IMG/VR virus record: IMGVR_UViG_3300009034_000020
Span: 1-64,000 of that record
Length of the DNA stretch: 64,000 nt
From: a virus
Direction: 5' to 3' (one strand)
Below are positions 4,116 through 47,434 of the stretch, piece by piece (position 1 is the first letter of the stretch; every line of letters begins with the position of its first letter). Below the pieces are notes generated by a model, which was given only the letters and a program-made list of their open reading frames with translations, made no database searches and was not told the origin of the DNA. The position numbers and the translations under genes are program-made.

Positions 4116-6716
4116 CTACACCTCCTTGTCTAGTGTAACCACGTTTCCATTAGCTGTCAAGACCGTCGTCTGCTCTCCCAGAGAACGTCCCCAGGAGACC
4201 TCGACCGGGCATTGCCAACCTAGTTTCGTGCCATCTGGTAGTATAGTCTCTTTCGCTACCCGCTCCCAGAGGTTCTTGATGAGCCATGCTGTCTCCAACG
4301 TGTACTCTGGGCTTGGAGCCTTAGCCTCAAAGACCAGCGAGTCATGGACCTCTAAGATAATGTTGGCACGGCCCTTCAATTCCTCCGCGCCCTCGGTCAC
4401 CACATGCGCGCGGCCGTGAAGGTCATGACCACCACTCTGGATGGGGAAGTTGTAACCCTTCCGAATGAGCTTCTGTAGGTCGTACTTGTACCCCAGGATC
4501 TGGAGTATCGGGATCTCCGGGAAGTGCCGCCATCTACCGAACTTGTTCTTGATACGGTAGTCGGTCAACATCCCCCGCTCTATCTCCTTGAAGTAGGCCG
4601 GGAGGGTTGGGAAGATGTCGGTCACGTACGCACCCATCAGAGCATGGGACTCATTCATCCCACACCCCAAGCGAGACGCAGCACCCTCATCGGTGAGCCC
4701 GTAGTTGATGCCGAAGGTGAAGACCTTGGCCTTCCCCCGCAGCTCGCCGAATTCCTGGCGCCAGTCCTGGTCATCCATGCCTACCCCCACATTGGGGAAC
4801 AAGTCGCTAATCTCTAGCTCGCCCAACTTACGAGCCACATAGGTATGGACATCCTCGCCACCCAGCAGCAACCCCATCAAGGTCGGATCCCCCGTCTGGT
4901 AGCCCAGCACCCACACCTCTAGCTGGGACCAGTCAGCGTTCATCAGGACACAGCCAGGCGGGGCGATGAAGAGCTGCCGGAAGGCATCCTTTAGCCCTAG
5001 TTCCGGGATGTGTATGTCCTTCGGTGGGTTCTGGAGGTTCGGCTTCTCGTATGAATGCCGCCCTGTGTCGGCGAAGCTCACCTTGACGTGCGCGTGGATG
5101 CGGTTGTCGGAGCAGATGTAGCGCCCGTAGCCACCAGTATCGCCACCGAGGTAGGTACTATAGAACTTGGTGGCACCCTTCAAGTCCAGGATTATCGGGA
5201 TGGCAGGATGCTTGTGCTCGGCATAGAGCGCCTCCAGCACCGCCTTATCTGTCGTCACATGGTCGATACAGGGATGCTCTTTGGTGCACACCCCGCAGCC
5301 CTTGGCACCGTCTGTCCGCTCATTAGGGATGGGGAACCCAAGGTCCTTGAACAAGTACTGCTGGAGCCCCGCCGGGGCCATGCTGACCTTCTTCCCGGCT
5401 ACCTCTTGGAGCTGCTTCTCGTACTTCTTGGCGACACCCGTGTAGTGGGTGCAGAGCTTCTTGAATAGCTTCGTGTCCACCAGGACCCCGCGGCGCTCCA
5501 TCTCCCAGCAGGCGCGTACAAGGGGCGTGGTGATGTTGTCTAGTAACCAACCGCTACCCTGCTCATTGACCTTCTCCTGGAGCTGCGGCGCAATGCGGGC
5601 AACTACATCCGCATCCGCCGCGCCATACTTCCACGTGATGATGTCTGGCACGTCTATCATGCGGCGCTTCCGCTGCGACAACTGCATGACCTCCTCCTCG
5701 TAATAGGGGAGATCAGTCCAGAAGGCGGTCAGATCTGTCAAGTGGTGCGACACGTTCTCCTGGAGGGCACGGCTGAGGAACAGTGTGTCTTGGTCCAGGT
5801 TCTCTACCCGTAGACCGAATGCTGTAGCAGCGGTGATGATCTCTTCGTCCTGGCGGCGCTCCAGGAACCGAACGTCGAAGTGTGCGTTCTGCCCCTGCTT
5901 CGGCTTATCGGAAGCGAAGATCTCACGCAGCAGGCAGATTACCTCAGCCCACTCGTTGTCGTTCCAAAATGGCTCCCAGCCCTGCCGGAGGATGGGTACG
6001 ATATAGCCAACGCCACCCTCATTCGGTGAGAAGGTGATGCATATCAGCTCGTCCCGCATCCAGTCTAGGCCCGTGGTCTCGGTGTCGAAGGCGAATGACT
6101 TGACCTCCGGCCCCACCAGGTAGGTCCGCAAGGCACGCAGGTCCGGCAGGGACAGGATAGGGGCGTAGTCGCCCATGTTCTGGCTACCTACCCCAGACTT
6201 CGCTAGACGAGCGGCCTTCTGCATGTGCGCCACGACCATCGGTGTCGCCGCCCACCTCCGCATGACGAATGCCGGGTGGTATGTTGGGACTAGGGGGATC
6301 CCAGTATCCTCCTGAACGAGGGTCTGTCCCGCCACGTCGCCGAGGACCATACGCCGGTAGAGCGTAGCTAGAGCCGGCACGCCCAGAGTCACGATGACCT
6401 TGGGCTGCACCCGCTTGATGATCTCGATGACGTTGGGCCGGCAGTTGGCCAGCTCTTCCGGCCTAGGCGTCCGGTTACCCGGCGGCCGGCAGAAGCAGGC
6501 GTTGAGTAAGTAGATCTCAGATGGCTTGAGACCCGCCTGCTTCACTAGCGTTGCTAGGACACGCCCAGCCTTGCCGACGAACGCCTTTTCCTGCTCGTCC
6601 TCTTCCCGCCCAGGAGCCTCTCCCAGGAAGAGGAGGTCGGCATGAGCAGGGCCTCGGCCCTTGACGATCTTAGTCCGGCTCTTGACCAGGCTCGGACACT
6701 TCTGGCATGTGGTCAA
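4116..6716 (-). CDS. polA: DNA polymerase family A with N-terminal family-4 uracil-DNA glycosylase and 3'-5' exonuclease domains
   Basis: UDG motifs GEAPG, CRPP.NRTP, YHP; exo FDTETTG; pol motifs NADWSQLE, RGKAKVFTFGINYG, EVHDSLVFE. Confidence 0.95.
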   Translation of the reverse strand: MTTCQKCPSLVKSRTKIVKGRGPAHADLLFLGEAPGREEDEQEKAFVGKAGRVLATLVKQAGLKPSEIYLLNACFCRPPGNRTPRPEELANCRPNVIEIIKRVQPKVIVTLGVPALATLYRRMVLGDVAGQTLVQEDTGIPLVPTYHPAFVMRRWAATPMVVAHMQKAARLAKSGVGSQNMGDYAPILSLPDLRALRTYLVGPEVKSFAFDTETTGLDWMRDELICITFSPNEGGVGYIVPILRQGWEPFWNDNEWAEVICLLREIFASDKPKQGQNAHFDVRFLERRQDEEIITAATAFGLRVENLDQDTLFLSRALQENVSHHLTDLTAFWTDLPYYEEEVMQLSQRKRRMIDVPDIITWKYGAADADVVARIAPQLQEKVNEQGSGWLLDNITTPLVRACWEMERRGVLVDTKLFKKLCTHYTGVAKKYEKQLQEVAGKKVSMAPAGLQQYLFKDLGFPIPNERTDGAKGCGVCTKEHPCIDHVTTDKAVLEALYAEHKHPAIPIILDLKGATKFYSTYLGGDTGGYGRYICSDNRIHAHVKVSFADTGRHSYEKPNLQNPPKDIHIPELGLKDAFRQLFIAPPGCVLMNADWSQLEVWVLGYQTGDPTLMGLLLGGEDVHTYVARKLGELEISDLFPNVGVGMDDQDWRQEFGELRGKAKVFTFGINYGLTDEGAASRLGCGMNESHALMGAYVTDIFPTLPAYFKEIERGMLTDYRIKNKFGRWRHFPEIPILQILGYKYDLQKLIRKGYNFPIQSGGHDLHGRAHVVTEGAEELKGRANIILEVHDSLVFEAKAPSPEYTLETAWLIKNLWERVAKETILPDGTKLGWQCPVEVSWGRSLGEQTTVLTANGNVVTLDKEV

Positions 6717-7164
6717 CGTAACCTGCTCCTAGCACAGCCAATACCTCTAGAGCCTCCTCGTCCGTCTCGACGATGAGCGAGCAGGCTTCCTTGACAAAGA
6801 TATGGCTATGGATGTTGTTCGGCTCCATGAGCACTAAGATGTACTTCCCATGATCATGCGCCCGCTGGATCTCCATGCAAGTGCCAATGGACACCTGGTC
6901 AGCGCCCAACAAGCGAGCGAAAAGGACATCGCACGTACGTACGTCGAAGCAATCGCGGCCATAGACGCCCTTCTGGGAGCTGACTGGGTGCTGTTCATAG
7001 CCCTCGGTAGTGAACTTCCGCACACGCTTCAGATGTTCCTTACCACGCATGGGGGACACGGCGGTATGACCTAGCTGGTGGAGTTGTGCGGCATACTCCT
7101 CACGCCACTCGACAGCACCCTTGTAGGTCTGCCCCGCAATCGGTCCTGCTAGATAGATTCTCAT
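6670..7164 (-). CDS. nucleoside 2-deoxyribosyltransferase family protein
   Basis: IYLAGPI, D..DV..CD, SIGTCMEI..A motifs. Confidence 0.8.
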   Translation of the reverse strand: MRIYLAGPIAGQTYKGAVEWREEYAAQLHQLGHTAVSPMRGKEHLKRVRKFTTEGYEQHPVSSQKGVYGRDCFDVRTCDVLFARLLGADQVSIGTCMEIQRAHDHGKYILVLMEPNNIHSHIFVKEACSLIVETDEEALEVLAVLGAGYVDHMPEVSEPGQEPD

Positions 7165-7490
7165 TTCCTCGGCCTCCTACTGAGCCGCATGATCTCCTTG
7201 CGGAACTTCTCCTTCTGGTCGCCGGTGAAGTAGCGGCTGTACTGCTCCTCCCGAATGTCGTTGATGAACCGCAAGCAGGCTTCCCGACCTACAGCAGCAG
7301 GGTCCTCGCCGGACATGACTTCACTAGGGCCGTTGCACGAGCAGCCGATGCCATACCAAACGCCTACCTCGCCACTAATGCTGATGCCGACAGCTAGGTA
7401 CTCCCACTCGTAGCCGCCGCCTAGGTCGCCTAGCTCACCAAGCGTCAACGTCCATCCTTCTGGGGGCTCGAAGTCGAACTCTGGTGTCAT
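7161..7490 (-). CDS. hypothetical protein
   Basis: ATG at 7490 coupled to the ruvC stop; GGGYEW and GCSCNGP motifs. Confidence 0.55.
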   Translation of the reverse strand: MTPEFDFEPPEGWTLTLGELGDLGGGYEWEYLAVGISISGEVGVWYGIGCSCNGPSEVMSGEDPAAVGREACLRFINDIREEQYSRYFTGDQKEKFRKEIMRLSRRPRK

Positions 7491-7975
7491 ACTGCACCTC
7501 CAGCCTTGGAATCGAAACAGGCGATGCACACCGCATCGTAGAAGTCCTGTGGGTGATCGTCCTTCAACCCCTTGAAGTGGGCAAGCGCCCACCTCTTGAT
7601 GTCTTCCTTCGAAGCATGTCCATCCCCGAGCACAGCACGCTTCCACGTTCCTGGGTCCACAAGGGTATGGTTCTGCCCGCGCAAGTACAGGAGCGCACGG
7701 ATAGCACCGACGACGATAGACTGATCGATGATGGCCTTGCGATTGATCTTGCGTGCGCCGCCACCCACCACCACAGGTCGCTCCACGTAGATCCAGTCAC
7801 ACGTGTCGAACTCTGGGATGGCGTGATAGAAGAGGTCTACGAGCATACAGAGCCGGTCTTCTGCCCGGCGCCCCTTCGCCTCTACTCGGCCAACGTGCAC
7901 AATACCTGGGGCCTCCGTGTCGGTGACGGCCCAGGTGATGGCCTTTGTATCCGGGTCAATCCCTACGACTCGCAT
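7487..7975 (-). CDS. ruvC: RuvC-like Holliday junction resolvase
   Basis: VVGIDP, YVERP, P.TWK..V.G.GHASKEDI, D.YDAVCIA. Confidence 0.85.
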   Translation of the reverse strand: MRVVGIDPDTKAITWAVTDTEAPGIVHVGRVEAKGRRAEDRLCMLVDLFYHAIPEFDTCDWIYVERPVVVGGGARKINRKAIIDQSIVVGAIRALLYLRGQNHTLVDPGTWKRAVLGDGHASKEDIKRWALAHFKGLKDDHPQDFYDAVCIACFDSKAGGAV

Positions 7976-16744: not shown

Positions 16745-18080
16745 GGTGTTCCTTGAAGGGGTCGCTCTCTCTCTTCTTGAACCAGGGGTAGCCAGTGTCG
16801 GCATCACGCCCAAAACCGACTGTCATCTCGCAGCCCTTGCCTCTGGAGGCATGTAGGCTGTCCTTGAGGACGTAGAGCTTCATGACAGGGCCACGTGGAT
16901 CGTCTGTCTGCTCCTCCCTAGTCTGGGACAGGCCCAGGACAATGTGCGCCCGGCGTACCTTGTCGAAGCAGTCACCTACTTGGCGTAGGCTGACTACTCC
17001 CTTGTCCACCGCATCCTTCGTAGCCTGGGTGCTAGTCCAGATCGCCACCTCTAGCTTGCGCGCCACGTCATTTCGCAGCGCCGTGTAGATCTGCCCCTGC
17101 GCCTCGTACCGGTTCTTCGTCTGGCCCAGCGCACGTAGGTCATCGGCGCTGTCGAGGATGATAAGGTCAGGCTTGAGGCCCGCCCGGTCCAGGTCCTGGA
17201 CGGCAGCGATTAGCTCTGGTACGGTCTCCACGTCCTGACGCACGTCGAAGAACGCTTTGTCCAACCCCTTCCGTTCTCGCCACGCCTTCAGCACCTCCAT
17301 CAGCTCCTTGCCCTTGGGTAGCTTGGTGATGGGCTGCCTCAAGATGGCAGCGACGATGCGCCGGCTAGTCTGTGTTGGGGTGAGCTCAAAGGTGTATACG
17401 AGCACCCGCTTGTTGGCGAGCCATGCCTTCGCCGCCAGGTAAGCTAGCGTCATGGACTTCCCAACGCTGGTGGCGGCGAGGACTACTGCAAGGTCATTGG
17501 GGTGGAGACCCCCGTCTATGTGGTCGTCAAGGTCGCCGCTACCTAGGGGTAGGCCAGTAGGGATAGCGCTCGGCGCTCTACTCACCCACTCCATGCGCTC
17601 ACCCATCTCGGGCAAGAACCCTACCGTGGTGATGCGCGTGTCCTCTTCGTCCCGGAGCTGGCGTAGGGTAGCTAGCTTGTCCGCCGCCTCCTCAACATGA
17701 CCTCGCTCAAGCAGGGTCTGTGCCTCATCAGCGGCTCGGTACACCCACCTCCCACGCAGCCACTCGGCAGCCTGGTCACGGACAGCAGGTAAGGACCCAC
17801 CCTCGGCCAGGTTCTCATGCATGATCTGGAGGTAGAGGCTGAACAGTGCCTGACCCTGCTCCCGTGGGTACTCCTCCAACCGGGCCTTGACTGCCTGTGG
17901 GTAGAGGATACCATGCTGCCGCTTCCAATAGTCGAGCGCCAGCTTCGCCAGCTCCTTGAGCAGGCCCCGGTCACCAAAGTCTTTGGGCTCAATTTGCTTG
18001 GCATGTGCCTCCATGAACTCTACATCCGAGAAGAGGAGGGCGGCGCACCATAGGAAAGGTTGGCTCAGCTTGCTAGCCAT
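16737..18080 (-). CDS. DnaB-like replicative helicase
   Basis: IPTG...GGL, AATSVGKS, TFEL, IILDSAD, WTSTQ. Confidence 0.9.
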   Translation of the reverse strand: MASKLSQPFLWCAALLFSDVEFMEAHAKQIEPKDFGDRGLLKELAKLALDYWKRQHGILYPQAVKARLEEYPREQGQALFSLYLQIMHENLAEGGSLPAVRDQAAEWLRGRWVYRAADEAQTLLERGHVEEAADKLATLRQLRDEEDTRITTVGFLPEMGERMEWVSRAPSAIPTGLPLGSGDLDDHIDGGLHPNDLAVVLAATSVGKSMTLAYLAAKAWLANKRVLVYTFELTPTQTSRRIVAAILRQPITKLPKGKELMEVLKAWRERKGLDKAFFDVRQDVETVPELIAAVQDLDRAGLKPDLIILDSADDLRALGQTKNRYEAQGQIYTALRNDVARKLEVAIWTSTQATKDAVDKGVVSLRQVGDCFDKVRRAHIVLGLSQTREEQTDDPRGPVMKLYVLKDSLHASRGKGCEMTVGFGRDADTGYPWFKKRESDPFKEHHD

Positions 18081-28191: not shown

Positions 28192-28659
28192 TCATTGTAG
28201 TTCCCTCCTCACCCAGTTATACCGCTCTAAGTCTAACTGTTGTAGGCTGGCCTTGTCCAGGTTGTAGAGCGCACAGCTATTGGCGAAGTCCTCCAATGGC
28301 GTCGGTCCCCACGTCCACACTGTCCCGACCGGGAAGCGGCCCTCCCAATCTTGACCTTCGCTCGTGTCGTACCACTCACGCAGGTCTAGCGTTGGCTCCT
28401 GGCCTAGCTCCTCCAAGATGACGGCGTGTTGGTGTGCATGGCATAGTTCATGCAGCACGACAATACTCCCGGCCTGAGTGTGCACCACTACCTCACGTAG
28501 CGGGGCGTAGTAGTAGTTAGCCGAGTGCTTGCCGAAAGGGCATACGTTTGTCGAAGTGCAGCCGGTGTCTGTCCGATGCACATGTACGCCATCGGGTAGG
28601 CTCATACATCCAGCCAGCAGCACAGCGGCCATGCTTAGGGCCGGCGCCAGCAGCTTCAT
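28192..28659 (-). CDS. lipoprotein with zincin HExxH motif
   Basis: Signal peptide with lipobox LLAGC; HELCH...EDFA. Confidence 0.7.
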   Translation of the reverse strand: MKLLAPALSMAAVLLAGCMSLPDGVHVHRTDTGCTSTNVCPFGKHSANYYYAPLREVVVHTQAGSIVVLHELCHAHQHAVILEELGQEPTLDLREWYDTSEGQDWEGRFPVGTVWTWGPTPLEDFANSCALYNLDKASLQQLDLERYNWVRRELQ

Positions 28660-35011: not shown

Positions 35012-35040
35012 TTGACAGCTCGGGATCCGCGTGTTATCCT
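35012..35040 (+). promoter_or_regulatory. sigma70-type promoter
   Basis: TTGACA-N17-TATCCT. Confidence 0.7.
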
Positions 35041-35090
35041 AAAGAAGGTGTAAAATCCAGCTCTGAGAACCATAAGTAAGGAGAGCCCCA

Positions 35091-35423
35091 ATGCCTATCA
35101 AGCCAAAGCCGCCTGGACCAATCGTCTACCCAGTTGCGGATACCCCAACGCCGTTCGACGTGACCCTGGCGGTCGCGGCGACTGCCGAAGACCTGGTGAC
35201 AGTACCTGCCCTCAAGAAGGGCCGGGCGATCTCCATTGTCAACGAGGGGCCGGGGGATGTCGCTGTTGCGTTCGACGCGGACGCAGTGGTGACGGATCTA
35301 CTCCTGTTGGAGGGAGACGCCTACGACGACCACGATCTGGAGATCAGCACTAAGGTGTCGTTCATCAACGTGACTGCGGCTGCACAGCCGCGGCTGCGTG
35401 GTATCCTCTGGAGCGGTCCCTAA
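35091..35423 (+). CDS. hypothetical protein
   Basis: 110-aa ORF with AAGGAG RBS after the promoter. Confidence 0.65.
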   Translation: MPIKPKPPGPIVYPVADTPTPFDVTLAVAATAEDLVTVPALKKGRAISIVNEGPGDVAVAFDADAVVTDLLLLEGDAYDDHDLEISTKVSFINVTAAAQPRLRGILWSGP

Positions 35424-35639
35424 TGCCCATTAGGCCAGGCCGCAGCCGGAAGGACAAAGATGACCTTCTGGCGGCTCTGCTGACCATCGCCGATACGCAG
35501 ATCCCCGGCAGCAGCTCCGTCAAGGACCGGGAGGCGTCGGTGCGGCTGTGGCAGGAGCTGCGGGATCTGCTTGCTAAGGAGGACCCCTAGACACTATTCT
35601 CTAGATATGGTATCCTAAACTGAAAGGGGGTGAGCACGA

Positions 35640-35801
35640 ATGTGCAACATCCATGTTGGCCGCTATGCCGACCCGCAGACCAGGAAAGACTGGCAGGGGT
35701 GGATCGAGCCCGACGACAAGTCGTGGATCGCGTTTGTGGCGGCGGATGGCCGGCCGGTCGTTTTCCTAGATCGAGACCCGAAGACCGGCGCGGTGTGCTA
35801 G
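35640..35801 (+). CDS. small hypothetical protein
   Basis: Translated by hand: MCNIHVGRYADP...WQGWIEPDDKSWIAFV. Confidence 0.5.
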   Translation: MCNIHVGRYADPQTRKDWQGWIEPDDKSWIAFVAADGRPVVFLDRDPKTGAVC

Positions 35802-35922
35802 GGGATTCCCGGTGGCGGGACGAGCCGCCTGCTCCCCAAACTCCTAGACACTAACCCCCAGACATGGTATCCTTGAATTGGCCTGGAGCAAATGCCCAGA
35901 GCGATGAAAGGAGCGAAAGCCC

Positions 35923-36171
35923 ATGCAAGCATTCACCGTCTACATCACCGTTAGATCCACGGAGCAGCTACCTAGACCGGATGATGATTCCGTCTTGGTG
36001 AAGGCCACCACGCAGGGGCTGAGAGAACCGTACTCTGTCCTACAAGGTGGCGATACGAGCTTGTTCTTTATTTGCCGGTCGCAGTACGCGCCACAGGCCG
36101 GCGATGCGCTAGAGGTGACCATCAAGGCGCACGGCCCGGCAGGAGAAACCGAGTCAGGAGAAACCGAGTAG
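35923..36171 (+). CDS. hypothetical protein
   Basis: AAGGAG RBS, downstream of a promoter. Confidence 0.55.
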   Translation: MQAFTVYITVRSTEQLPRPDDDSVLVKATTQGLREPYSVLQGGDTSLFFICRSQYAPQAGDALEVTIKAHGPAGETESGETE

Positions 36172-36245
36172 GGGCCTTGCTCCAGGCCCTAGACACTATT
36201 CTCTAGACATGGTACTATGGAGGTGACACTTGAGGAGGTGCATTA

Positions 36246-36517
36246 TGGCAGGTCTTAGCCATGGTCCCATTCGGGACTCAAAACCAGAACGAATCGAGCT
36301 GACGCTTAGGCTGGAGTACCGGCCTGAGCACGCGCCCTACGTGTGGGGCGCGGAAGTAACGAACGGCTTCACGAATGGCGCCGGTGGCGGGCAATCGCCC
36401 ATCGAGGCCATCAGCATCGCGCTGGGCGGCCTGGAGAGTAGCATCCTACGCATGGACGACGACCTGAAGTACCAGGTGATGACTTACCGCCCGCCCAGCC
36501 TGGACGAAGATCGCTAG
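36246..36517 (+). CDS. hypothetical protein
   Basis: GAGGAGG RBS; start position approximate. Confidence 0.5.
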
Positions 36518-36527
36518 GAGGTACATC

Positions 36528-36902
36528 GTGGCAGGTGCACTATTCAACCCATTTTCAAATGCCCCAGGATACGGCCGGGGCGCAACCCCGAAACAACCGC
36601 CGAGCAGTCCTTTCACCGTGGACGACTGCATTGAGTACATCAGGCAGTTGGACCTACGGCTAGCTAACGCCGAGCTCGCGCTGACGCGACACGCTATGCT
36701 CACGAGGCCAATGAACTACCGGGAGCACCTGATAGAAGAGCTGGCGGGTGAGCTGGAGTGCGCCGACTGGAGCGACATCGAGGAAGCGCTCACCAACATC
36801 CTGCGTGCCCTGGCGCCTGGGTTAGAGGTGGAGCGCATCGATCTCAGTGCGCACCAGGAGAACATAGTCCAGCAATTCGAAAAGGAATACCGGGAGGTGT
36901 AA
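36528..36902 (+). CDS. hypothetical protein
   Basis: GGAGG RBS, GTG start. Confidence 0.55.
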   Translation: MAGALFNPFSNAPGYGRGATPKQPPSSPFTVDDCIEYIRQLDLRLANAELALTRHAMLTRPMNYREHLIEELAGELECADWSDIEEALTNILRALAPGLEVERIDLSAHQENIVQQFEKEYREV

Positions 36903-36903
36903 T

Positions 36904-37410
36904 GTGGGCGACTTGGTTGGTGCAGAAGTACGGAATGCGCTGGGCTACTTGGCGGACCTGGTGGGGAAGCTTCAGAGCCAGGTAGATTACCTGGAGAAGG
37001 ACCGAGACGAGCTGGTAGTGCGCGCGGCGATCTTGGAGACACAGGTAGAGGCCCTGGAGGAGCGCACGGGTACGGCGACCCCGACTTGGACGTTCTACTC
37101 GCCTCCCCCGGCACCGTACGTCGGCGGCGAGCTCGAGGCAGTAACTGGCTTGGCCGCGGAGGCGTTGTACCAGAAGCAGCTCCTGGATGCGCTGGCAGAT
37201 CGGATAACGGAGCTGGAGGAGGGCGCCGACGAGTCGGCGAGGTACAACGAAGAGGTGGACCGGTTCAACGCGGAGGTCGAGGCCGACCTGGTTCCGAGAG
37301 AGCTGGCGCAGCGGATAGCGGACCTGGAAGACGCGCAGTGGCTGCACCATGTAGAGGATGGCTCGTGTGCTCGGGTCCCGATTCACCACAAGGTGATACG
37401 GGATGACTAA
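36904..37410 (+). CDS. coiled-coil hypothetical protein
   Basis: Heptad-rich 168-aa ORF. Confidence 0.55.
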   Translation: MGDLVGAEVRNALGYLADLVGKLQSQVDYLEKDRDELVVRAAILETQVEALEERTGTATPTWTFYSPPPAPYVGGELEAVTGLAAEALYQKQLLDALADRITELEEGADESARYNEEVDRFNAEVEADLVPRELAQRIADLEDAQWLHHVEDGSCARVPIHHKVIRDD

Positions 37411-37648
37411 GCTGCCCGAGGTCTGTTCCTGGTCTATAGAACCCGAGGCCCGCTGGTTCTCGCGTTGCCGGTGCTGTAGGCGCTTGCGAGTGCGTACCTA
37501 TTACTTCGAGGTATATGGCAAGCACTGTGGGATCCACGGATCGTGCTGGTGGTACGAGTGCCTGTGGTGCTTTGTGAGGACCCTCACGGGTGTGCTCGAA
37601 GTAGAGGCAGGTTCTCCAGAGGATCCTTTCCTGGACAAGGACTGCTGA
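37403..37648 (+). CDS. Cys-rich hypothetical protein
   Basis: CRCC...C..H..C...CLWC. Confidence 0.45.
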   Translation: MTKLPEVCSWSIEPEARWFSRCRCCRRLRVRTYYFEVYGKHCGIHGSCWWYECLWCFVRTLTGVLEVEAGSPEDPFLDKDC

Positions 37649-37704
37649 ACGTGCTACACTGGATTAGTAAGGGTCCCATGTTCTATCCACTGAGTTACCG
37701 GGAG
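37646..37704 (-). pseudogene. degenerate 5' portion of a tRNA (Arg-like D arm), or anti-tRNA sequence on the + strand
   Basis: Minus strand reads CTCCCGG-TA-ACTC-AGTGGATA-GAAC-A-TGGGA...TCCA...GCACG-TTCA, with no 3' half. Confidence 0.5.
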
Positions 37705-37892
37705 GAGACCATGAAGACGAAGGGGAGAACGCCGTGAAGCTGACCATCTGTAAAGAATGTACCGCGAAGCGGCACAAGATCGTTGCGCATGAGGAAGGCA
37801 AGTGCGATGCCGAGGGCACGCGCGAGGTAGCGGCGATCTTGAAGCTCCGGCCGAAGGAGAAGAAGTAGCACGAGCGCAGTTGGAGGTGCATC

Positions 37893-38147
37893 ATGGCAGA
37901 AACGCGAATCGCGTTCATCCTGTTGGGAATAAACGAGGATAGGGCTCTGGAGATCCTAGCGACTTCTAGAGTCCTCGACCGGGACCTGCTCGACCGGGCG
38001 GCTAACCTATTCCGGTGTCGCATAGCCAGCGAGTTCCACATCCTGCGGGTCCTTGACAACACGAACGGGATGCTCGGCAGCGCTTTGCTGCCAGTGGAGA
38101 TTACAGTCACCGCTACCGTCTCGGAAGAGGCGCGCGGGGACCTCTAG
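37893..38147 (+). CDS. hypothetical protein
   Basis: GGAGG RBS; stop abuts the RNA cluster. Confidence 0.55.
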   Translation: MAETRIAFILLGINEDRALEILATSRVLDRDLLDRAANLFRCRIASEFHILRVLDNTNGMLGSALLPVEITVTATVSEEARGDL

Positions 38148-38227
38148 GGGGCGAAGGTTCGACCGGCAGTAGAAAGCCCCACGCTAGGGACTCTGTTGGG
38201 ACGGGGGTTCGAGTCCCCCCGCCTCCA
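38147..38227 (+). ncRNA. minimal tmRNA-like RNA (tRNA-like domain only)
   Basis: Acceptor GGGGGCG/CGCCTCC-A with G3.U70; stemless D loop AAGGTTCGA; helix 2a; GAC; T arm GGGGG-TTCGAGT-CCCCC. Confidence 0.75.
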
Positions 38228-38274
38228 CTGATAACACCAGCGTTTGCGCACATTCGCTGGTAATTCTATCCCGT

Positions 38275-38362
38275 GGAGGGGTGGCCAAATGGCAAGGCGC
38301 TGGCTTCGAAACCCAGTGAGGCGCTACGCGCTATGGGAGTTCGAATCTCTCCCCCTCCGCCA
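38275..38362 (+). tRNA. tRNA-Ser(CGA)
   Basis: Cloverleaf with long variable arm, G73, encoded CCA. Confidence 0.9.
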
Positions 38363-38365
38363 CAA

Positions 38366-38456
38366 GGCTGGGCCGCGGAGATTGGCGAGCCGCGCCGGCC
38401 CGTAAAGTCGGTGGCCCTTGAGGTCTGAGCATGTTCGAATCATGCCCCAGCCACCA
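38366..38456 (+). tRNA. tRNA-Tyr(GTA), atypical C8 and C33
   Basis: GGCTGGG/CCCAGCC-A-CCA; loop CC-GTA-AA; long variable arm. Confidence 0.8.
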
Positions 38457-38457
38457 T

Positions 38458-38531
38458 GCGCGACGAGTCGGACGGTAAGACATTTGCGTGCCATGCAAAG
38501 GGAAGGAGTTCAATTCTCCTGTCGCGCACCA
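38458..38531 (+). tRNA. tRNA-Gly(GCC)
   Basis: GCGCGAC/GTCGCGC-A-CCA; TTTGC-GTGCCAT-GCAAA. Confidence 0.8.
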
Positions 38532-38532
38532 T

Positions 38533-38608
38533 AGGGGATTAGCTCAGTTGGTAGAGCGCTTGGTCTACACCCAAGATGTCGGGGGTTCAAGTCCCTCATC
38601 CCCCACCA
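38533..38608 (+). tRNA. tRNA-Val(TAC), atypical C33
   Basis: CTTGG-TCTACAC-CCAAG; canonical D and T arms; CCA. Confidence 0.85.
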
Positions 38609-38609
38609 T

Positions 38610-38684
38610 GGAGGCGGTAGTGTAACGGCAGCACGGTAGGTTGTGGCCCTGCTAGTTCGAGTTCGAATCTCGACCGTCACCCCA
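38610..38684 (+). tRNA. tRNA-His(GTG)
   Basis: G-1:C73, loop TT-GTG-GC, CCA. Confidence 0.9.
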
Positions 38685-38685
38685 T

Positions 38686-38760
38686 GGGGGACTAGCTCAC
38701 CTGGGAGAGCACCGGTCCTGCAAACCGGAGAACAGAGTTCAAGTCTCTGGTCCTCCACCA
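38686..38760 (+). tRNA. tRNA-Ala(TGC), atypical C33
   Basis: G3.U70, CCGGT-CCTGCAA-ACCGG, CCA. Confidence 0.9.
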
Positions 38761-38787
38761 ATTATGCCGTGACAGCGGGTCGCCCCC

Positions 38788-38816
38788 TTGACAACCGGCG
38801 CCCGAGGTGCTACTAT
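38788..38816 (+). promoter_or_regulatory. sigma70-type promoter
   Basis: TTGACA-N17-TACTAT. Confidence 0.7.
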
Positions 38817-38919
38817 GAGAGCAAGGACTGGGGGACAATACAGTCCATTAGCCGGTGGGGTGCCGAGGCAACTAAATCACGTGAACCCCCGGCATCAGTC
38901 CTAGCCGAAAGGAACACGC

Positions 38920-39195
38920 ATGAGTGTGTGCAGAGGGTCCTCTGGGGATTGTACCCATTGCGCTACAGCTAAGGTATCTCTAGAGGCACGGGTCGCACAG
39001 GCTGAGCGCCGCCTTGCGCAGCTTGAAGAGGCACACACCAGCCTAGCTAAAGCCCTGACTGAGTACCATGGTCAAGTTGGCTCAGCTATTGGGCTCCTCT
39101 CCATGAACCTCAACGAGCTCCTGGACCGCATGACCGAAATGGAGGAGAGGCACGACACAAGTCTCCTCGGCGCAGGAGAAGATCGGCAGCACTAA
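38920..39195 (+). CDS. coiled-coil hypothetical protein
   Basis: AAAGGA RBS; followed by a terminator. Confidence 0.5.
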   Translation: MSVCRGSSGDCTHCATAKVSLEARVAQAERRLAQLEEAHTSLAKALTEYHGQVGSAIGLLSMNLNELLDRMTEMEERHDTSLLGAGEDRQH

Positions 39196-39224
39196 CAAAC
39201 GGCCTGGCAGGGGCGATATTAGAG

Positions 39225-39253
39225 AACCCCTCTCGTAATACGGGAGGGGTTTT
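39225..39253 (+). terminator. intrinsic terminator hairpin
   Basis: AACCCCTCTCG-TAATA-CGGGAGGGGTT followed by T run. Confidence 0.7.
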
Positions 39254-39380
39254 GGCAATGGGGGCCAGGTCAATTCCGCCGGACTATTGTCGCGCCGCCC
39301 GGCGTAGAGGCGCGCGATCCCGGCCCCCGCCCACCTCGCCGCCGATGGCGCCTTTGTGGTCGAGCGAGGGGGGCATTACT

Positions 39381-39409
39381 ATGATAGCGGGTCCGCCATG
39401 TTTTGTCAA
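39381..39409 (-). promoter_or_regulatory. sigma70-type promoter facing a non-coding GC-rich segment
   Basis: TTGACA-N17-TATCAT on the minus strand. Confidence 0.6.
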
Positions 39410-39682
39410 GCTGGGGTGTATTAGACATTACCACGTACCATGTGGTAAGATATGGATGTGATGATGACGTTAGCTCCCTTGTTGCTGCTAGTCCTTGTGG
39501 GCCTCATCATTAGAGAGGGTCTGTTCTGGAGTGAGGTGCATCGTGCCCGGAAAGCTACGCTGTCCAATTTGCTATCGCTGGTGTGGTAGGCCCCAGCGGC
39601 GGATGAAGTTCGCCAGCAAGGCAGCGCGCCGCGCCTACATCACCGAAATCAAGAAGCTCGGGGTCGTGGTTCTGCACGCCGA

Positions 39683-42760: not shown

Positions 42761-43309
42761 GTGGGACTGATGCTAAAGTTTCTACATCGTCTTGCCTTTA
42801 CGGCACGCGCCATCCCGGCTGGGCTGCGCGGAGAGTTGATGGTAGGCCACGCGACACTGGCCCTCAAGATCACACGCGCTGATGGCACAGTCGAGGACAA
42901 GGGAATTGTGTCCCGTAAGAAGGTCACACGCGCCTGGGTCAACGACCTCGTGGATGCCATGTGCGATGCAGCCGGGTCCGGTGCACTAGCGACCTTCAAC
43001 GACTACATCTACCACGGTGCCGGCACAGGCACCACCGGGGAAGCCAACACAGACACCGATCTAGAAACGGACACTGGTGAAACGCGGGGTACCGGCACCC
43101 GAGTGGACAATAGTACTGCCGCGCAAGGGATCTACCAGAGCGTTGGCGTGGTTACGTTCACGGGCGCCCACACGATAGCGGAGCACGGGCTCTTCAATGC
43201 TATTACCGGGGGTACGCTCTTGGACCGTTCTGTACACGCCGGCCAAGCCGTCAATTCTGGAGACACCGCGACGTACACATACATAGTAACACTCGATCCA
43301 GAAGCCTAG
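42761..43309 (+). CDS. putative tail-associated protein
   Basis: G.GTG....DT.L...IAEHGLFNA..GGTL..R tail-fibre-attachment-like motif. Confidence 0.6.
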   Translation: MGLMLKFLHRLAFTARAIPAGLRGELMVGHATLALKITRADGTVEDKGIVSRKKVTRAWVNDLVDAMCDAAGSGALATFNDYIYHGAGTGTTGEANTDTDLETDTGETRGTGTRVDNSTAAQGIYQSVGVVTFTGAHTIAEHGLFNAITGGTLLDRSVHAGQAVNSGDTATYTYIVTLDPEA

Positions 43310-43318
43310 GGGGTAGTA

Positions 43319-44326
43319 ATGGCGTTTACATCCGGCGTTTATGTGGGCAACGCTGCTGACGACACTGCTATTACCGGCGTGGGCTTCCAGCCTAATGTCG
43401 TCATTATCCACGGATACTCCAACTCCTTTGCCCTCTGGCGGCAGACGGGGATGGCCGCGACTAAACCTATCGACAGTACTATTGCCGCTTCCTACGCCGA
43501 TGGTATCAAATCTTTGGACGTAGACGGCTTTACAATCGGCACGAACATCTACGTCAACGCGGTTGGGGTTTCCTTCTATTGGATGGCCTTCATGGACGAT
43601 GGAGCCGCTGATTGTGAAGTCAAGTATGGCTCCTACATGGGGGACGGCGCCGACAACAGAGACATCTCGGGAGTTACTACCCCAGTGTGGGTCTTCGTCG
43701 GCACGCTGGACCAAGCGAAGAGGCCGCGGCACCGCATCAAGAACCTAAACCCGGTGTCGGATACGTCTTGGCCGTGGGATGATCCCGCCGCAGCCTCAAA
43801 CTGTATCCAGAAGCTGGGGGGTGATAACCCAGCTCAGGCGGATGGGTTTGAGATTGGCTCGCACACCGATGTGAATAAGTCAGGCGATACGTACCATTGG
43901 TTCGCTTTTCAAGCTAAAACCAATGTGCTGGTGGAGAACACCTACGATGGTAACGGGGTAGACAATCGTTCTATTGCTGGAGTAGGCTTCGCGCCGGAGA
44001 TGGTCTGGGTCCATGAGATCGGTGGTGGGAAGAGCTGGTGGTTTACGGATTCTCACCCCGCAGACTTGACATTGGGGGGTCAAGTTGGCTGGGGGATAGC
44101 TGATGCGATCCAAGCTCTCGAAGCAGATGGCTTCCAGGTCGGCACCTACAATGAAGTCAATCAGAATCTATACACGTTTCGCTACTTGGCTTTTGGTGTC
44201 GGGGCGGTGGACTACCCAATCGCCCTCGCTGGCGCTCTTAGCGCTGGCTGGGCTGCGGGTACCTTGAGCGCGGCTTACGTGCTTAGACGCCAGATCGCCG
44301 AGCGTATCCGCAGGTTCTTCAACTAA
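43319..44326 (+). CDS. putative tail fibre / receptor-binding repeat protein
   Basis: Three repeats of Y.G.G.D.R.I.GVGF.P...DGF.IG. Confidence 0.6.
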   Translation: MAFTSGVYVGNAADDTAITGVGFQPNVVIIHGYSNSFALWRQTGMAATKPIDSTIAASYADGIKSLDVDGFTIGTNIYVNAVGVSFYWMAFMDDGAADCEVKYGSYMGDGADNRDISGVTTPVWVFVGTLDQAKRPRHRIKNLNPVSDTSWPWDDPAAASNCIQKLGGDNPAQADGFEIGSHTDVNKSGDTYHWFAFQAKTNVLVENTYDGNGVDNRSIAGVGFAPEMVWVHEIGGGKSWWFTDSHPADLTLGGQVGWGIADAIQALEADGFQVGTYNEVNQNLYTFRYLAFGVGAVDYPIALAGALSAGWAAGTLSAAYVLRRQIAERIRRFFN

Positions 44327-45594: not shown

Positions 45595-45711
45595 ATGGAA
45601 TGGGAGACTGTCCTGATTCTAGTCAACTCCCTCGATACGCTGCTGGGAGTCGGCATCCTTGCCTTTGCTGGGTATGTCGCATATCGCCGATGGTGGAAGC
45701 GTGACAGCTAA
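45595..45711 (+). CDS. single-TM peptide (38 aa)
   Basis: MEWETVLILVNSLDTLLGVGILAFAGYVAYRRWWKRDS; AGGAGG RBS. Confidence 0.5.
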   Translation: MEWETVLILVNSLDTLLGVGILAFAGYVAYRRWWKRDS

Positions 45712-47434
45712 TGTACCGGTAAAGGAACTCTTGTTCGGCGGGATCGACCCAGAGAGCGATCTGCACAAGATCCTCCTGGACCCGACCCCGGAGTGGACGC
45801 AGAAGTGGATCGAGTCCTTCTTGAGCATCGACTCGGAGCAGGGCGCTATCGTTTCTTTCAAGCTCTACCCGCAGCAGGTCCAGATGCTCTACGGTGGGAC
45901 CGGCCGCGACGTTACCATCAAGGGCCGCCAGACGAGGGCTTCCTCGTTGTTGCTGGCCCGCAACCTCCGCCGCATGACGACCGGCTCGGGGTTGAAATGC
46001 GTGGTAATGACGCAGGACGACCAGACGACAGCTACGTTCCGGGAAAGGCTCAAGCACCACCTGCGTGACCTGGCTACGCACGGGCTGGAGTACATAATCG
46101 CCCTGGACAACGACAACGAGCTGGTGATTGGCGACCTGGAGAACCGTTACATGTTCACCTCGGGTGAGCAGCGAGTCGCTGGGCGAGCCATTACCGGACA
46201 CATAGTCCATCTCTCTGAGGTGGCCCACTATCCGATGGACAAGGCGTACACGCTCCTCGGCGGTATTACGCCGTCCGTGCCTGGGCCGCCCTATGGGCAA
46301 TTCGACATGGAGAGTACACCAAAGGGGGCGGAGGGTGTCTTCTACGAGCACGCGATAGGTGCCAAGCCGATGAACCCAGAAGACGATTGGACGGTCCACC
46401 TGTACCCCTGGTGGTTAGAGCCGCGTTATGTCGTGGGTACCGGAACTGCGGTAGATAAGAAGGTAACGGAAACGGAACTCGCTCGGCGAATCGCCGAGTT
46501 CGAGCCTAGCCCGGATGAAGCGAAGCTCATAGAAGAGTTCGGGCTAAGTGTCCCACAGATCTTGTGGCGCCGAGTCACCTGGCGGGCGATGGCGAAGACT
46601 GATACGCCGTTCCTCCAGGAGTTTGTCGAGCGGATCGACACGTGCTTCGTAAGCGCGAGCGAGAACTTCTTCGCTAGCCCGGATGGCGTGGACCACCTGG
46701 CCTACTACCGTGTCGGGCTGCGGGAGCCGGTCATGAAGAAGGAGACGCTACCTTGGGCTGGCGGAGACATCAGTTTCTTCGGGTCGAATCTGTCGATCTG
46801 GGAGTTCCCACAACCGGGTGAGGTATACGTCGGCTGGATGGACTGTGCCGGCGGTGGCCTCGATGAGAGGAGCGACTTCACAGCGTTGACGGTGCTGAAC
46901 GTGCAGACGATGCACCACGTGGCTACCTTGCGGTTGAAGGTAGCGCCGACTGAGGCGGCAGCCATGGCCGCTGCCGTGATGAAGTACTACAATTCGGGAG
47001 CCCTAGGTGGCGAGCGAGATGCATACGGCGCGACCTGCGTGAGCACTCTAGAACGGATAGGCTACCGGAACCTGTGGTACTACACCGATCCTACGAGGAA
47101 TGTGGAGCCGCAGGTATGGGGCCACCCGACACAGGTGCGGGACAAGATCCTGGAATCCCTACGCAAGCAGGTCTTCGAGCATAGCCTCGTGACCTCAGAC
47201 AGGATACTCCTCCAGGAGATGGGTTCCTTCGGTTGGGCTAAGGCTCGCGGTACGCGGAAGGCAGTAGGAAAGCAGAGTCACGATGACCTTGTGTTATCTA
47301 TGGCGGGGGCCACGTATATCGCGCCCTTCTATCGCGCCCGAGCTAAGGCCCCGGATGAGCCCATATTGATCGATAAGCACGGGCTGGTTATAAGAAAGGG
47401 GTCGCGTAAAGGCCCCCAGCCGTGGATGAGGTAG
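45701..47434 (+). CDS. terL: terminase large subunit
   Basis: YPQQ, KGRQ, VHLSEVA, MESTP.G, nuclease MDCAGG..SDFT, HDDLV. Confidence 0.9.
   Translation: MTANVPVKELLFGGIDPESDLHKILLDPTPEWTQKWIESFLSIDSEQGAIVSFKLYPQQVQMLYGGTGRDVTIKGRQTRASSLLLARNLRRMTTGSGLKCVVMTQDDQTTATFRERLKHHLRDLATHGLEYIIALDNDNELVIGDLENRYMFTSGEQRVAGRAITGHIVHLSEVAHYPMDKAYTLLGGITPSVPGPPYGQFDMESTPKGAEGVFYEHAIGAKPMNPEDDWTVHLYPWWLEPRYVVGTGTAVDKKVTETELARRIAEFEPSPDEAKLIEEFGLSVPQILWRRVTWRAMAKTDTPFLQEFVERIDTCFVSASENFFASPDGVDHLAYYRVGLREPVMKKETLPWAGGDISFFGSNLSIWEFPQPGEVYVGWMDCAGGGLDERSDFTALTVLNVQTMHHVATLRLKVAPTEAAAMAAAVMKYYNSGALGGERDAYGATCVSTLERIGYRNLWYYTDPTRNVEPQVWGHPTQVRDKILESLRKQVFEHSLVTSDRILLQEMGSFGWAKARGTRKAVGKQSHDDLVLSMAGATYIAPFYRARAKAPDEPILIDKHGLVIRKGSRKGPQPWMR

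Follow-up and report, generated by a model that had tools for sequence, protein, structure and literature searches.

The window analyzed here is the first 64 kb of the 72,816-bp IMG/VR virus record IMGVR_UViG_3300009034_000020, which CheckV rates as 100% complete. Its tRNA cluster is headed by an 81-nt element that an earlier note had described as a transfer-messenger RNA (tmRNA) reduced to an alanine-accepting tRNA-like domain (TLD), with no mRNA-like domain. The parts of this 'mini-tmRNA', its neighbours and related elements in cultured phages are collected in Table 1. We found the bases and the anatomy of 38147-38227 as the note had described them: the tmRNA ends, G3.U70, A73 and helix 2a are in place, and CCA is indeed not encoded, CTG following A73, while all six neighbouring tRNA genes encode it. 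The minimum free energy fold is the expected one and consists of the acceptor stem, an unpaired D-loop analogue, helix 2, an A-rich loop with a hairpin, and the T arm. Between the two strands of helix 2 lie 23 nt with a 3-bp hairpin, and GAC then follows helix 2. The mRNA-like domain (resume codon, tag open reading frame (ORF) and stop codon) is absent, and a single small hairpin stands where a tmRNA has the pseudoknots PK1-PK4.

Table 1. Features of the mini-tmRNA locus in the window and related elements in cultured phages (R1, covariance model of this work)
Record	Feature	Position	Strand	Basis or remark
Window	Nearest upstream sigma-70-like promoter match, 9/12 with TG	37632-37660	+	Consensus scan; possible start of a mini-tmRNA and tRNA transcript
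Window	84-aa ORF, stop codon overlapping the first base of the mini-tmRNA	37893-38147	+	No family match
Window	TLD-only ('mini') tmRNA gene, 81 nt	38147-38227	+	Rfam RF00023 61.8 bits; R1 57.7 bits, E ~5e-11
Window	Acceptor stem 5' strand, 7 bp, pairs with 38220-38226, includes G3.U70	38147-38153	+	Sequence, minimum free energy structure
Window	Stemless D-loop analogue, 9 nt (AAGG + TTCGA)	38154-38162	+	3-nt deletion relative to the tmRNA consensus
Window	Helix 2 5' strand, CCGGCAG, pairs with 38193-38199	38163-38169	+
Window	A-rich internal loop and capping hairpin (stem 38178-38180 / 38187-38189), replacing pseudoknots and tag ORF	38170-38192	+
Window	Helix 2 3' strand, CTGTTGG; 7 pairs, two G.U	38193-38199	+
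Window	T arm, 5-bp stem and TTCGAGT loop	38203-38219	+	Sequence, RF00023
Window	Acceptor 3' strand and discriminator A73; then CTG, not CCA	38220-38227	+
Window	tRNA cluster, six genes: Ser-cga, Tyr-gta, Gly-gcc, Val-tac, His-gtg, Ala-tgc	38275-38760	+	ARAGORN; CCA encoded in 6/6
Window	Normal tRNA-Ala(tgc) of the window phage	38686-38760	+	ARAGORN
LuckySocke OR725497	Mini-tmRNA, unannotated	17977-18054		R1 63.6 bits
Shaeky MT701595	Mini-tmRNA, unannotated	42932-43010		R1 63.2 bits
BRock NC_048650	Mini-tmRNA, unannotated	97143-97220	-	R1 61.1 bits
Riptide PV654398	Full-length tag-encoding tmRNA	94862-95130		92.9 bits
Riptide PV654398	Diverged mini form	83298-83374		R1 45.8 bits; G3.U70 and A73 kept, D-loop end and GGAC altered

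The Rfam tmRNA model RF00023 matches 38147-38230 over model positions 1-374 (61.8 bits, E 1e-21, gathering score 47), with 12 nt replacing 296 model positions, and this is the single tmRNA match in the entire record. Together with the covariation described below, this score bears out the assignment of the element to the TLD of tmRNA without an mRNA-like domain. A better fit to an ordinary tRNA was not found, as the tRNA model RF00005 stayed below threshold at 15 bits on the element (E 0.115, cut-off 29), and the model of mitochondrial tmRNA (mt-tmRNA, RF02544) had no match at E<=10 across the entire record. Models of permuted and two-piece tmRNAs (RF04321, RF01849-51) gave no match in the window at the gathering threshold, and the order of the gene is the standard one; the same scan does detect the true permuted tmRNA of phage SM1. 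ARAGORN made no call on the mini-tmRNA.

Relatives of the element were sought with two sequence patterns. The first fixed both ends of the TLD and allowed a middle of 15-45 nt, and it returned 34 viral contigs with versions of 73-86 nt. Because this pattern forced G3.U70 and A73, a second, looser one was used, whose only constraints are the D-loop end TTCGAC and, after a gap of 15-45 nt, GGAC with the T arm; it matched at least 120 viral stretches. The 137 viral loci collected altogether (numbered with the prefix L) gave, from the matches listed, at least 110 unique sequences. Of these 110, 106 have an acceptor stem placed 2-15 nt upstream with six or seven of its seven pairs, and in 104 the stem is complete. 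Among those 106 sequences G3.U70 occurs in 104 and G3-C70 in the other two, A73 in 105, and CCA is encoded in 33; the sequences are 64-95 nt long, most often 79. All 16 metagenomic members that were run through Rfam match the tmRNA model over positions 1-374 above threshold. Most members share the layout of the window element in the middle: helix 2 of 6-10 pairs, a purine-rich 5' loop (often AAAGCC/AAGACC), a 3-4-bp hairpin and then 1-3 unpaired bases. Among the matches listed, the closest relative of the window element is only 79% identical to it, and the exact 23-nt stretch at the 5' end of the element is unmatched in viral contigs. When the second pattern was applied to cellular genome contigs, it gave at least 120 stretches, of which 119 were parsed. 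Five of the matches listed were mini forms with a 7/7 acceptor stem starting GGGG, all of them on contigs shorter than 18 kb in metagenome-assembled genomes or a low-coverage assembly. Since most of the other cellular matches listed look like 3' ends of ordinary tmRNAs, the second pattern is specific only in viral data.

Homologs with covariation were found in phage metagenomes, in the form of more than 100 distinct relatives of 64-95 nt. In the first set of 27 sequences 95.0% of the expected partners were paired, compared with 43-56% for slid partners, and 113 double-change cells were counted versus 12-18. The covariance model R1 was built from nine sequences of equal D-loop length with a hand-drawn structure; of the 84 unique loci newly found, it matches all but L054, L093, L112 and L121. 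We aligned these 80 loci with the window element, Mycobacterium phage DS6A and three Streptomyces phages, which gave 85 distinct rows (alignment A5). Here again 95.0% of positions were paired versus 38-52% with slid partners, and 478 double-change cells stand against 55-119; on four of five measures the observed value was reached by none of 500 shuffles. The pairs G1-C72, G2-C71 and G3.U70 are invariant (85/85 each), and next to them the acceptor pairs 4, 5 and 6 show 26, 39 and 28 double changes. Selection for alanylation would be expected to leave just such an invariant G3.U70 beside covarying pairs 4-6. Pairing reaches 96.7% over the first five pairs of helix 2, four of which have 45-56 double changes, and 100% in the T stem, where three pairs have 27-58; helix 2 and the outer pairs of the T stem covary heavily. 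In the helix of the capping hairpin, pairing is 75.8%. As judged from these alignments, the window element is a member of a recurring, covarying family and not a one-off deletion.

Copies in cultured Streptomyces phages were located by BLAST with two family members and then by R1. In LuckySocke, Shaeky and BRock the element sits in a gap of the tRNA cluster, as in the window, and scores 57-64.5 bits with the Rfam tmRNA model, where the short form alone passes the threshold. Phage Riptide has both a full-length, tag-encoding tmRNA and a diverged mini form (Table 1). The Cellulophaga phages phi14:2 and Calle_1 were rejected as members, as their similarity is confined to the 3' end and Calle_1 has a full-length tmRNA of 360 nt. 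Pseudomonas phage SM1 (NC_041877, L037) carries a permuted two-piece tmRNA at locus 1418-1809 (RF04321 118.6 bits, beta_tmRNA 111.2 bits), which is unannotated in its record.

The genomic settings of the family were analyzed by clustering ORFs and annotating one representative per cluster with PHROGs. We observed that the settings are lineage-specific and that the element always lies on the coding strand; the GC content of the host loci ranges from 0.31 to 0.67. Of the 106 unique cases, 21 have a tRNA no more than 500 nt away, and 81 have none in the examined locus. Eleven loci have the element upstream of the gene for the major head protein, and in 10 it is immediately preceded by that for the head maturation protease. 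The element is found downstream of a terminase large subunit gene in eight loci, of which at least L008, L017 and L029 have the portal gene next after it, and it precedes a DnaB-like helicase gene in nine, some of which have endonuclease VII and primase genes farther downstream. All-against-all comparison of ORFs within 3-4 kb revealed no protein partner conserved across groups or shared with the window, but only lineage-specific synteny. Several single loci have features of their own. L105 contains two mini-tmRNA copies 1.3 kb apart (5-81 and 1317-1392; R1 55.4 and 51.5 bits), and L022 a HEARO RNA (RF02033, 170.6 bits) at 794-1003 on the + strand, 5.3 kb upstream of the mini-tmRNA. In L143 a 615-aa ORF just upstream of the mini-tmRNA (5798-7645, - strand) matches the RNA-ligase PHROG phrog_14859 in its C-terminal part (E 2.8e-50) and, weakly, head maturation protease families as well; RNA ligase genes also occur near the tRNA/mini-tmRNA clusters of LuckySocke and BRock. 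ARAGORN tmRNA calls overlap the relatives in L028, L048, L091, L101 and L130, and its call of a permuted tmRNA in L028 was discarded, as Rfam gives it no backing.

The record itself belongs to a tailed phage, as judged from PHROG matches: a DNA polymerase, a DnaB-like helicase, a UvsX-like recombinase and a helicase lie on the - strand of the left arm, and a gene for the major head protein lies on the + strand, at 58.6 kb. GC content is about 0.60, with a switch of skew near 34-35 kb. The DNA polymerase shows at most 24% identity to that of any isolate, and the major head protein is unmatched in the phage genome collection. A relative of the window phage, L039 (80% identity via the protein at 45659-47434; 50% complete according to CheckV), starts too late to include the locus and has no R1 match. 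The same protein led to a second relative, the 2.3-kb metagenome contig L266, without the mini-tmRNA region; the proteins at 36904-37410 and 43319-44326 had no relatives in viral contigs and metagenome contigs, respectively. A 223-nt contig from one sediment-metagenome DNA run spans 38105-38272 with zero differences, and since this run is possibly the source sample, the match is not independent proof against misassembly. Another contig of that run joins 38272 to 38366 and omits 93 nt, i.e. the tRNA-Ser gene, and further joints omit 37527-37682, 38362-38603 and 39188-39273; these may be joints of the assembly graph or reflect population variants that differ in tRNA content.

According to ARAGORN, the first tRNA of the cluster begins 47 nt 3' of the mini-tmRNA. 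The Rfam tRNA model supports five of the six tRNAs, the exception being tRNA-Tyr(gta) at 38366-38456 (+ strand, 91 nt), which has no match at the gathering threshold or at E<=10. With its 7-bp acceptor stem, encoded CCA and long extra arm it may be an unusual tRNA. In the consensus scan the next promoter-like match on the + strand after the tRNAs is at 38788-38816, and no + strand terminator-like site was seen between it and the promoter match upstream of the mini-tmRNA. Promoter-like sites of one type, T(A/T/G)GACA, 17-18 nt and TATCCT/TACTAT or similar, all TG-extended, form a series from 35012 to 39451 on the + strand; including one on the - strand there are eight, where 1.7 are expected, and the series resembles a phage early or middle promoter set. 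SmpB, RF-1/ArfB-like, Pth and CCA-adding domains were not found in the 72.8-kb record, and any activity of the RNA must therefore draw on host factors. A tyrosine integrase was not found either.

Our preferred interpretation, to which we assign a probability of roughly 55%, is that the RNA, charged with alanine and dependent on SmpB, competes with host tmRNA for stalled ribosomes and thereby separates rescue from proteolysis tagging. The mini-tmRNA would share a transcript with the tRNA cluster, from which RNase P and 3' processing enzymes would release it; such co-transcription and shared processing are suggested by the promoter match upstream and the lack of a terminator-like site in between. 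The host CCA-adding enzyme would then add CCA, and host AlaRS would charge the RNA with alanine via G3.U70 and A73. That charging matters is argued by the near-universal AlaRS identity set beside freely covarying pairs. The tRNA-like domain of tmRNA pairs with SmpB, and by homology with this known pair the retained tmRNA-type D-loop end and helix 2 argue for binding of host SmpB as well. Competing with host tmRNA, the complex would be brought by EF-Tu to ribosomes that have stalled on non-stop mRNAs, and the nascent chain would be accepted by the mini-tmRNA, which supplies no resume codon or tag ORF. In an in vitro model of trans-translation Ala-TLD.SmpB accepts the peptide and translocates, as described in passages of PMC3929946. 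As the net effect, stalled-ribosome products of the infection would lack the ssrA degradation tag and host trans-translation would be suppressed or bypassed, to the presumed benefit of the phage.

Several observations weigh against this interpretation. The folding energy of the element (-35.8 kcal/mol, z = -0.57) is unremarkable, 55 of 200 shuffles folding as well or better, so that the evidence for the element is homology and covariation rather than stability. The fifth measure in A5, 'further pair types', was reached by 127 of 500 shuffles and is not significant; moreover, the alignments A4 and A5 were fitted to R1 itself, by which the pair counts lean towards the structure, and kinship among the sequences inflates the shuffle tests. 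The D-loop analogue of the window is the shortest in the family (4 nt precede TTCGAC, compared with 6-11 nt in 105 of the 106 relatives), and its R1 score is among the lowest; given these features and the missing CCA, the window copy could be a weaker or uncharged variant. Our search of RNA sequencing runs gave none containing 37600-39300. Riptide, with both forms, is awkward for any model that sees the mini form as a simple shutdown of trans-translation. Finally, PMC4131195 and PMC11915505 attribute to Mao et al. 2009 the finding that a DS6A-type molecule inhibits tmRNA in E. coli, and in the account of that experiment given by PMC4131195 charging is not needed; inhibition alone therefore leaves the conserved AlaRS elements unexplained.

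The two functions proposed in the earlier note, an SmpB/AlaRS decoy and rescue without tagging, remain the two leading hypotheses. In the latter, additional ribosome-rescue capacity and not inhibition would be the main benefit: the Ala-charged mini-tmRNA with SmpB would free ribosomes stalled on non-stop mRNAs, the peptidyl-Ala-RNA leaving by drop-off and Pth or by ArfA/ArfB-type release, so that phage proteins stay untagged and ribosomes are not lost. We regard such a productive rescuer as doubtful, although a role of this kind is assumed for organellar tmRNAs without a coding sequence (CDS), which serve as a precedent (passages of PMC11915505). It shares every step with the competitor interpretation up to peptidyl transfer. 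The charging determinants, the organellar precedents and the two forms in Riptide all favour a productive role, and many phages carry full-length tmRNAs, which makes the boosting of rescue a known phage habit. However, an RNA lacking a stop codon has no built-in release step, an ArfB-like or Pth protein is missing from the window phage, and the sole experimental report, as the papers citing it have it (PMC4131195, PMC11915505), finds tmRNA function in E. coli inhibited.

Alternatively, the RNA might be a pure sponge that sequesters host SmpB and is never charged and never enters the ribosome. The charging-independent inhibition cited in PMC4131195 would fit, but we consider this improbable, because a sponge would have no need of AlaRS determinants, yet G3.U70 and A73 are retained although the pairs next to them covary freely. 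The full-length tmRNA beside the mini form in Riptide also speaks against it. The missing CCA, which only 33 of 106 relatives and all six tRNA neighbours of the window copy encode, could be taken as a sign of an uncharged RNA; however, many bacterial tRNA genes lack an encoded CCA, and the CCA-adding enzyme repairs them.

A non-translational use, for instance as a tRNA-like processing or punctuation element whose RNase P / RNase Z signal splits polycistronic transcripts, the likeness to tmRNA being a leftover of ancestry, appears very improbable to us. Many relatives do lie inside operons on the coding strand, in the head, terminase/portal and DnaB-like helicase settings, and most are apart from tRNAs. 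Any tRNA-like fold would serve this purpose, however, whereas tmRNA-specific features, namely the lack of an anticodon arm, the TTCGAC D-loop end, helix 2, G3.U70 and A73, are kept across the whole range of GC content. Scarcely credible is decay or artefact, whether by misassembly, by a recent deletion inside a full-length phage tmRNA or as an attP remnant left by integration into ssrA: ssrA does serve phages as an attB site (passages of PMC10865867), the window copy is low-scoring with a short D-loop, and no relative covering the locus was found, L039 and L266 not reaching it, but the same architecture recurs in more than 100 distinct sequences with compensatory changes, a DNA-run contig (possibly from the same sample) matches the locus exactly, and an attP remnant is unlikely because a tyrosine integrase is lacking and both acceptor strands stand in standard order, where an attP core would hold the 3' part only.

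Beyond the window, we tentatively propose that TLD-only tmRNAs form a widespread, mobile and positively selected class of phage genes, found in tRNA clusters, head-morphogenesis operons and replication modules and left unannotated in cultured Streptomyces phages. They may be alanine donors acting on the ribosome and thereby distinct from simple titrators of SmpB, as the nearly universal retention of the AlaRS identity set suggests. If so, their effect could be rescue without a degron or the addition of short Ala tails in repeated rounds, and phages would possess a strategy to control the fate of stalled-ribosome products. Trans-translation is the main bacterial pathway of ribosome rescue and quality control and an antibiotic target. 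A compact natural RNA that competes with tmRNA and is present in many phages would signal that they routinely manipulate the fate of stalled ribosomes and would be a ready-made probe or inhibitor of the pathway. In phage metagenomes the class is common; ARAGORN is silent on the window copy, and the Rfam gathering threshold misses that of DS6A. Our analysis adds a large covarying family, a working model (R1) and cultured, tractable Streptomyces phages.

TLD-only phage tmRNAs as a kind are already known, and it is the breadth of the family that appears to be unreported. 'Mycobacterium phage DS6A (TLD only)' was listed by Hudson, Lau & Williams 2014 (PMC4131195), and the DS6A form is found again, beside tag-less mitochondrial tmRNAs and two plastid forms of ~65 bp, in passages of the 2025 tmRNA database paper (PMC11915505). 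These entries refute the statement of the earlier note that the phage tmRNAs described so far all carry a tag ORF, and the novelty it implied was overstated, since the DS6A form was reported in 2009. In the literature we found no description of a TLD-only phage tmRNA family beyond DS6A, where the supplementary tables of the tmRNA database paper may list more phages, and the family goes unmentioned in main-text passages of a 2023 survey of IMG/VR structured RNAs.

Among known systems, tRNA-Ala shares G3.U70, A73 and the acceptor and T arms with the window RNA, which differs from it in having no anticodon arm and no D stem. The standard one-piece bacterial tmRNA and full-length phage tmRNAs (269-360 nt; Streptomyces BE-cluster phages, Cellulophaga phage Calle_1) have the TLD in common with it, i.e. 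the G3.U70/A73 acceptor stem, the D-loop and T-loop motifs and the start of helix 2, whereas about 300 nt with pseudoknots, resume codon, tag ORF and stop codon are gone from the window form. The two-piece tmRNAs of Pseudomonas phage SM1 and OM43 phage Melnitz also provide a short, acceptor-bearing, tmRNA-derived phage RNA, but they are permuted, whereas the order in the window is unpermuted and the RNA closes on itself. According to passages of PMC11915505, mitochondrial tmRNAs without a tag frame occur in jakobids and oomycetes (RF02544), and two plastid tmRNAs of ~65 bp from Mallomonadaceae appear to be CDS-less; like the window RNA, these are reduced to the TLD. Imported SmpB accompanies the mitochondrial form, which is believed to assist where mRNAs are incomplete (PMC11915505). 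Such organellar tmRNAs are the sole tmRNA of their compartment, whereas the phage form would act beside a full-length host tmRNA.

The closest counterpart is DS6A. Its element, at 28478-28557, is unannotated and lies between the hypothetical gp33 and a DNA polymerase III gene; it reaches 61.7 bits with R1, close to the 57.7 bits of the window, and 43.2 bits with the Rfam tmRNA model, where it falls below the gathering threshold that the window copy exceeds. The middle of the DS6A element is nearly the same as that of the metagenomic member L025. Both the DS6A and the window element are phage-encoded RNAs of ~80 nt in standard 5'-to-3' order with G3.U70, A73, a stemless D-loop and a helix 2 whose cap is made up of an A-rich loop with a small hairpin, and both lack a tag ORF and an encoded CCA. 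Unlike that of the window, the DS6A element lies outside a tRNA cluster in a phage of a Mycobacterium host, its D-loop ends in GGTCGAC, and CAC replaces GAC. On its sequence features, the window element is a phage tag-less tmRNA of the DS6A 'TLD only' class, consisting of a tRNA-like domain and a capped helix 2.

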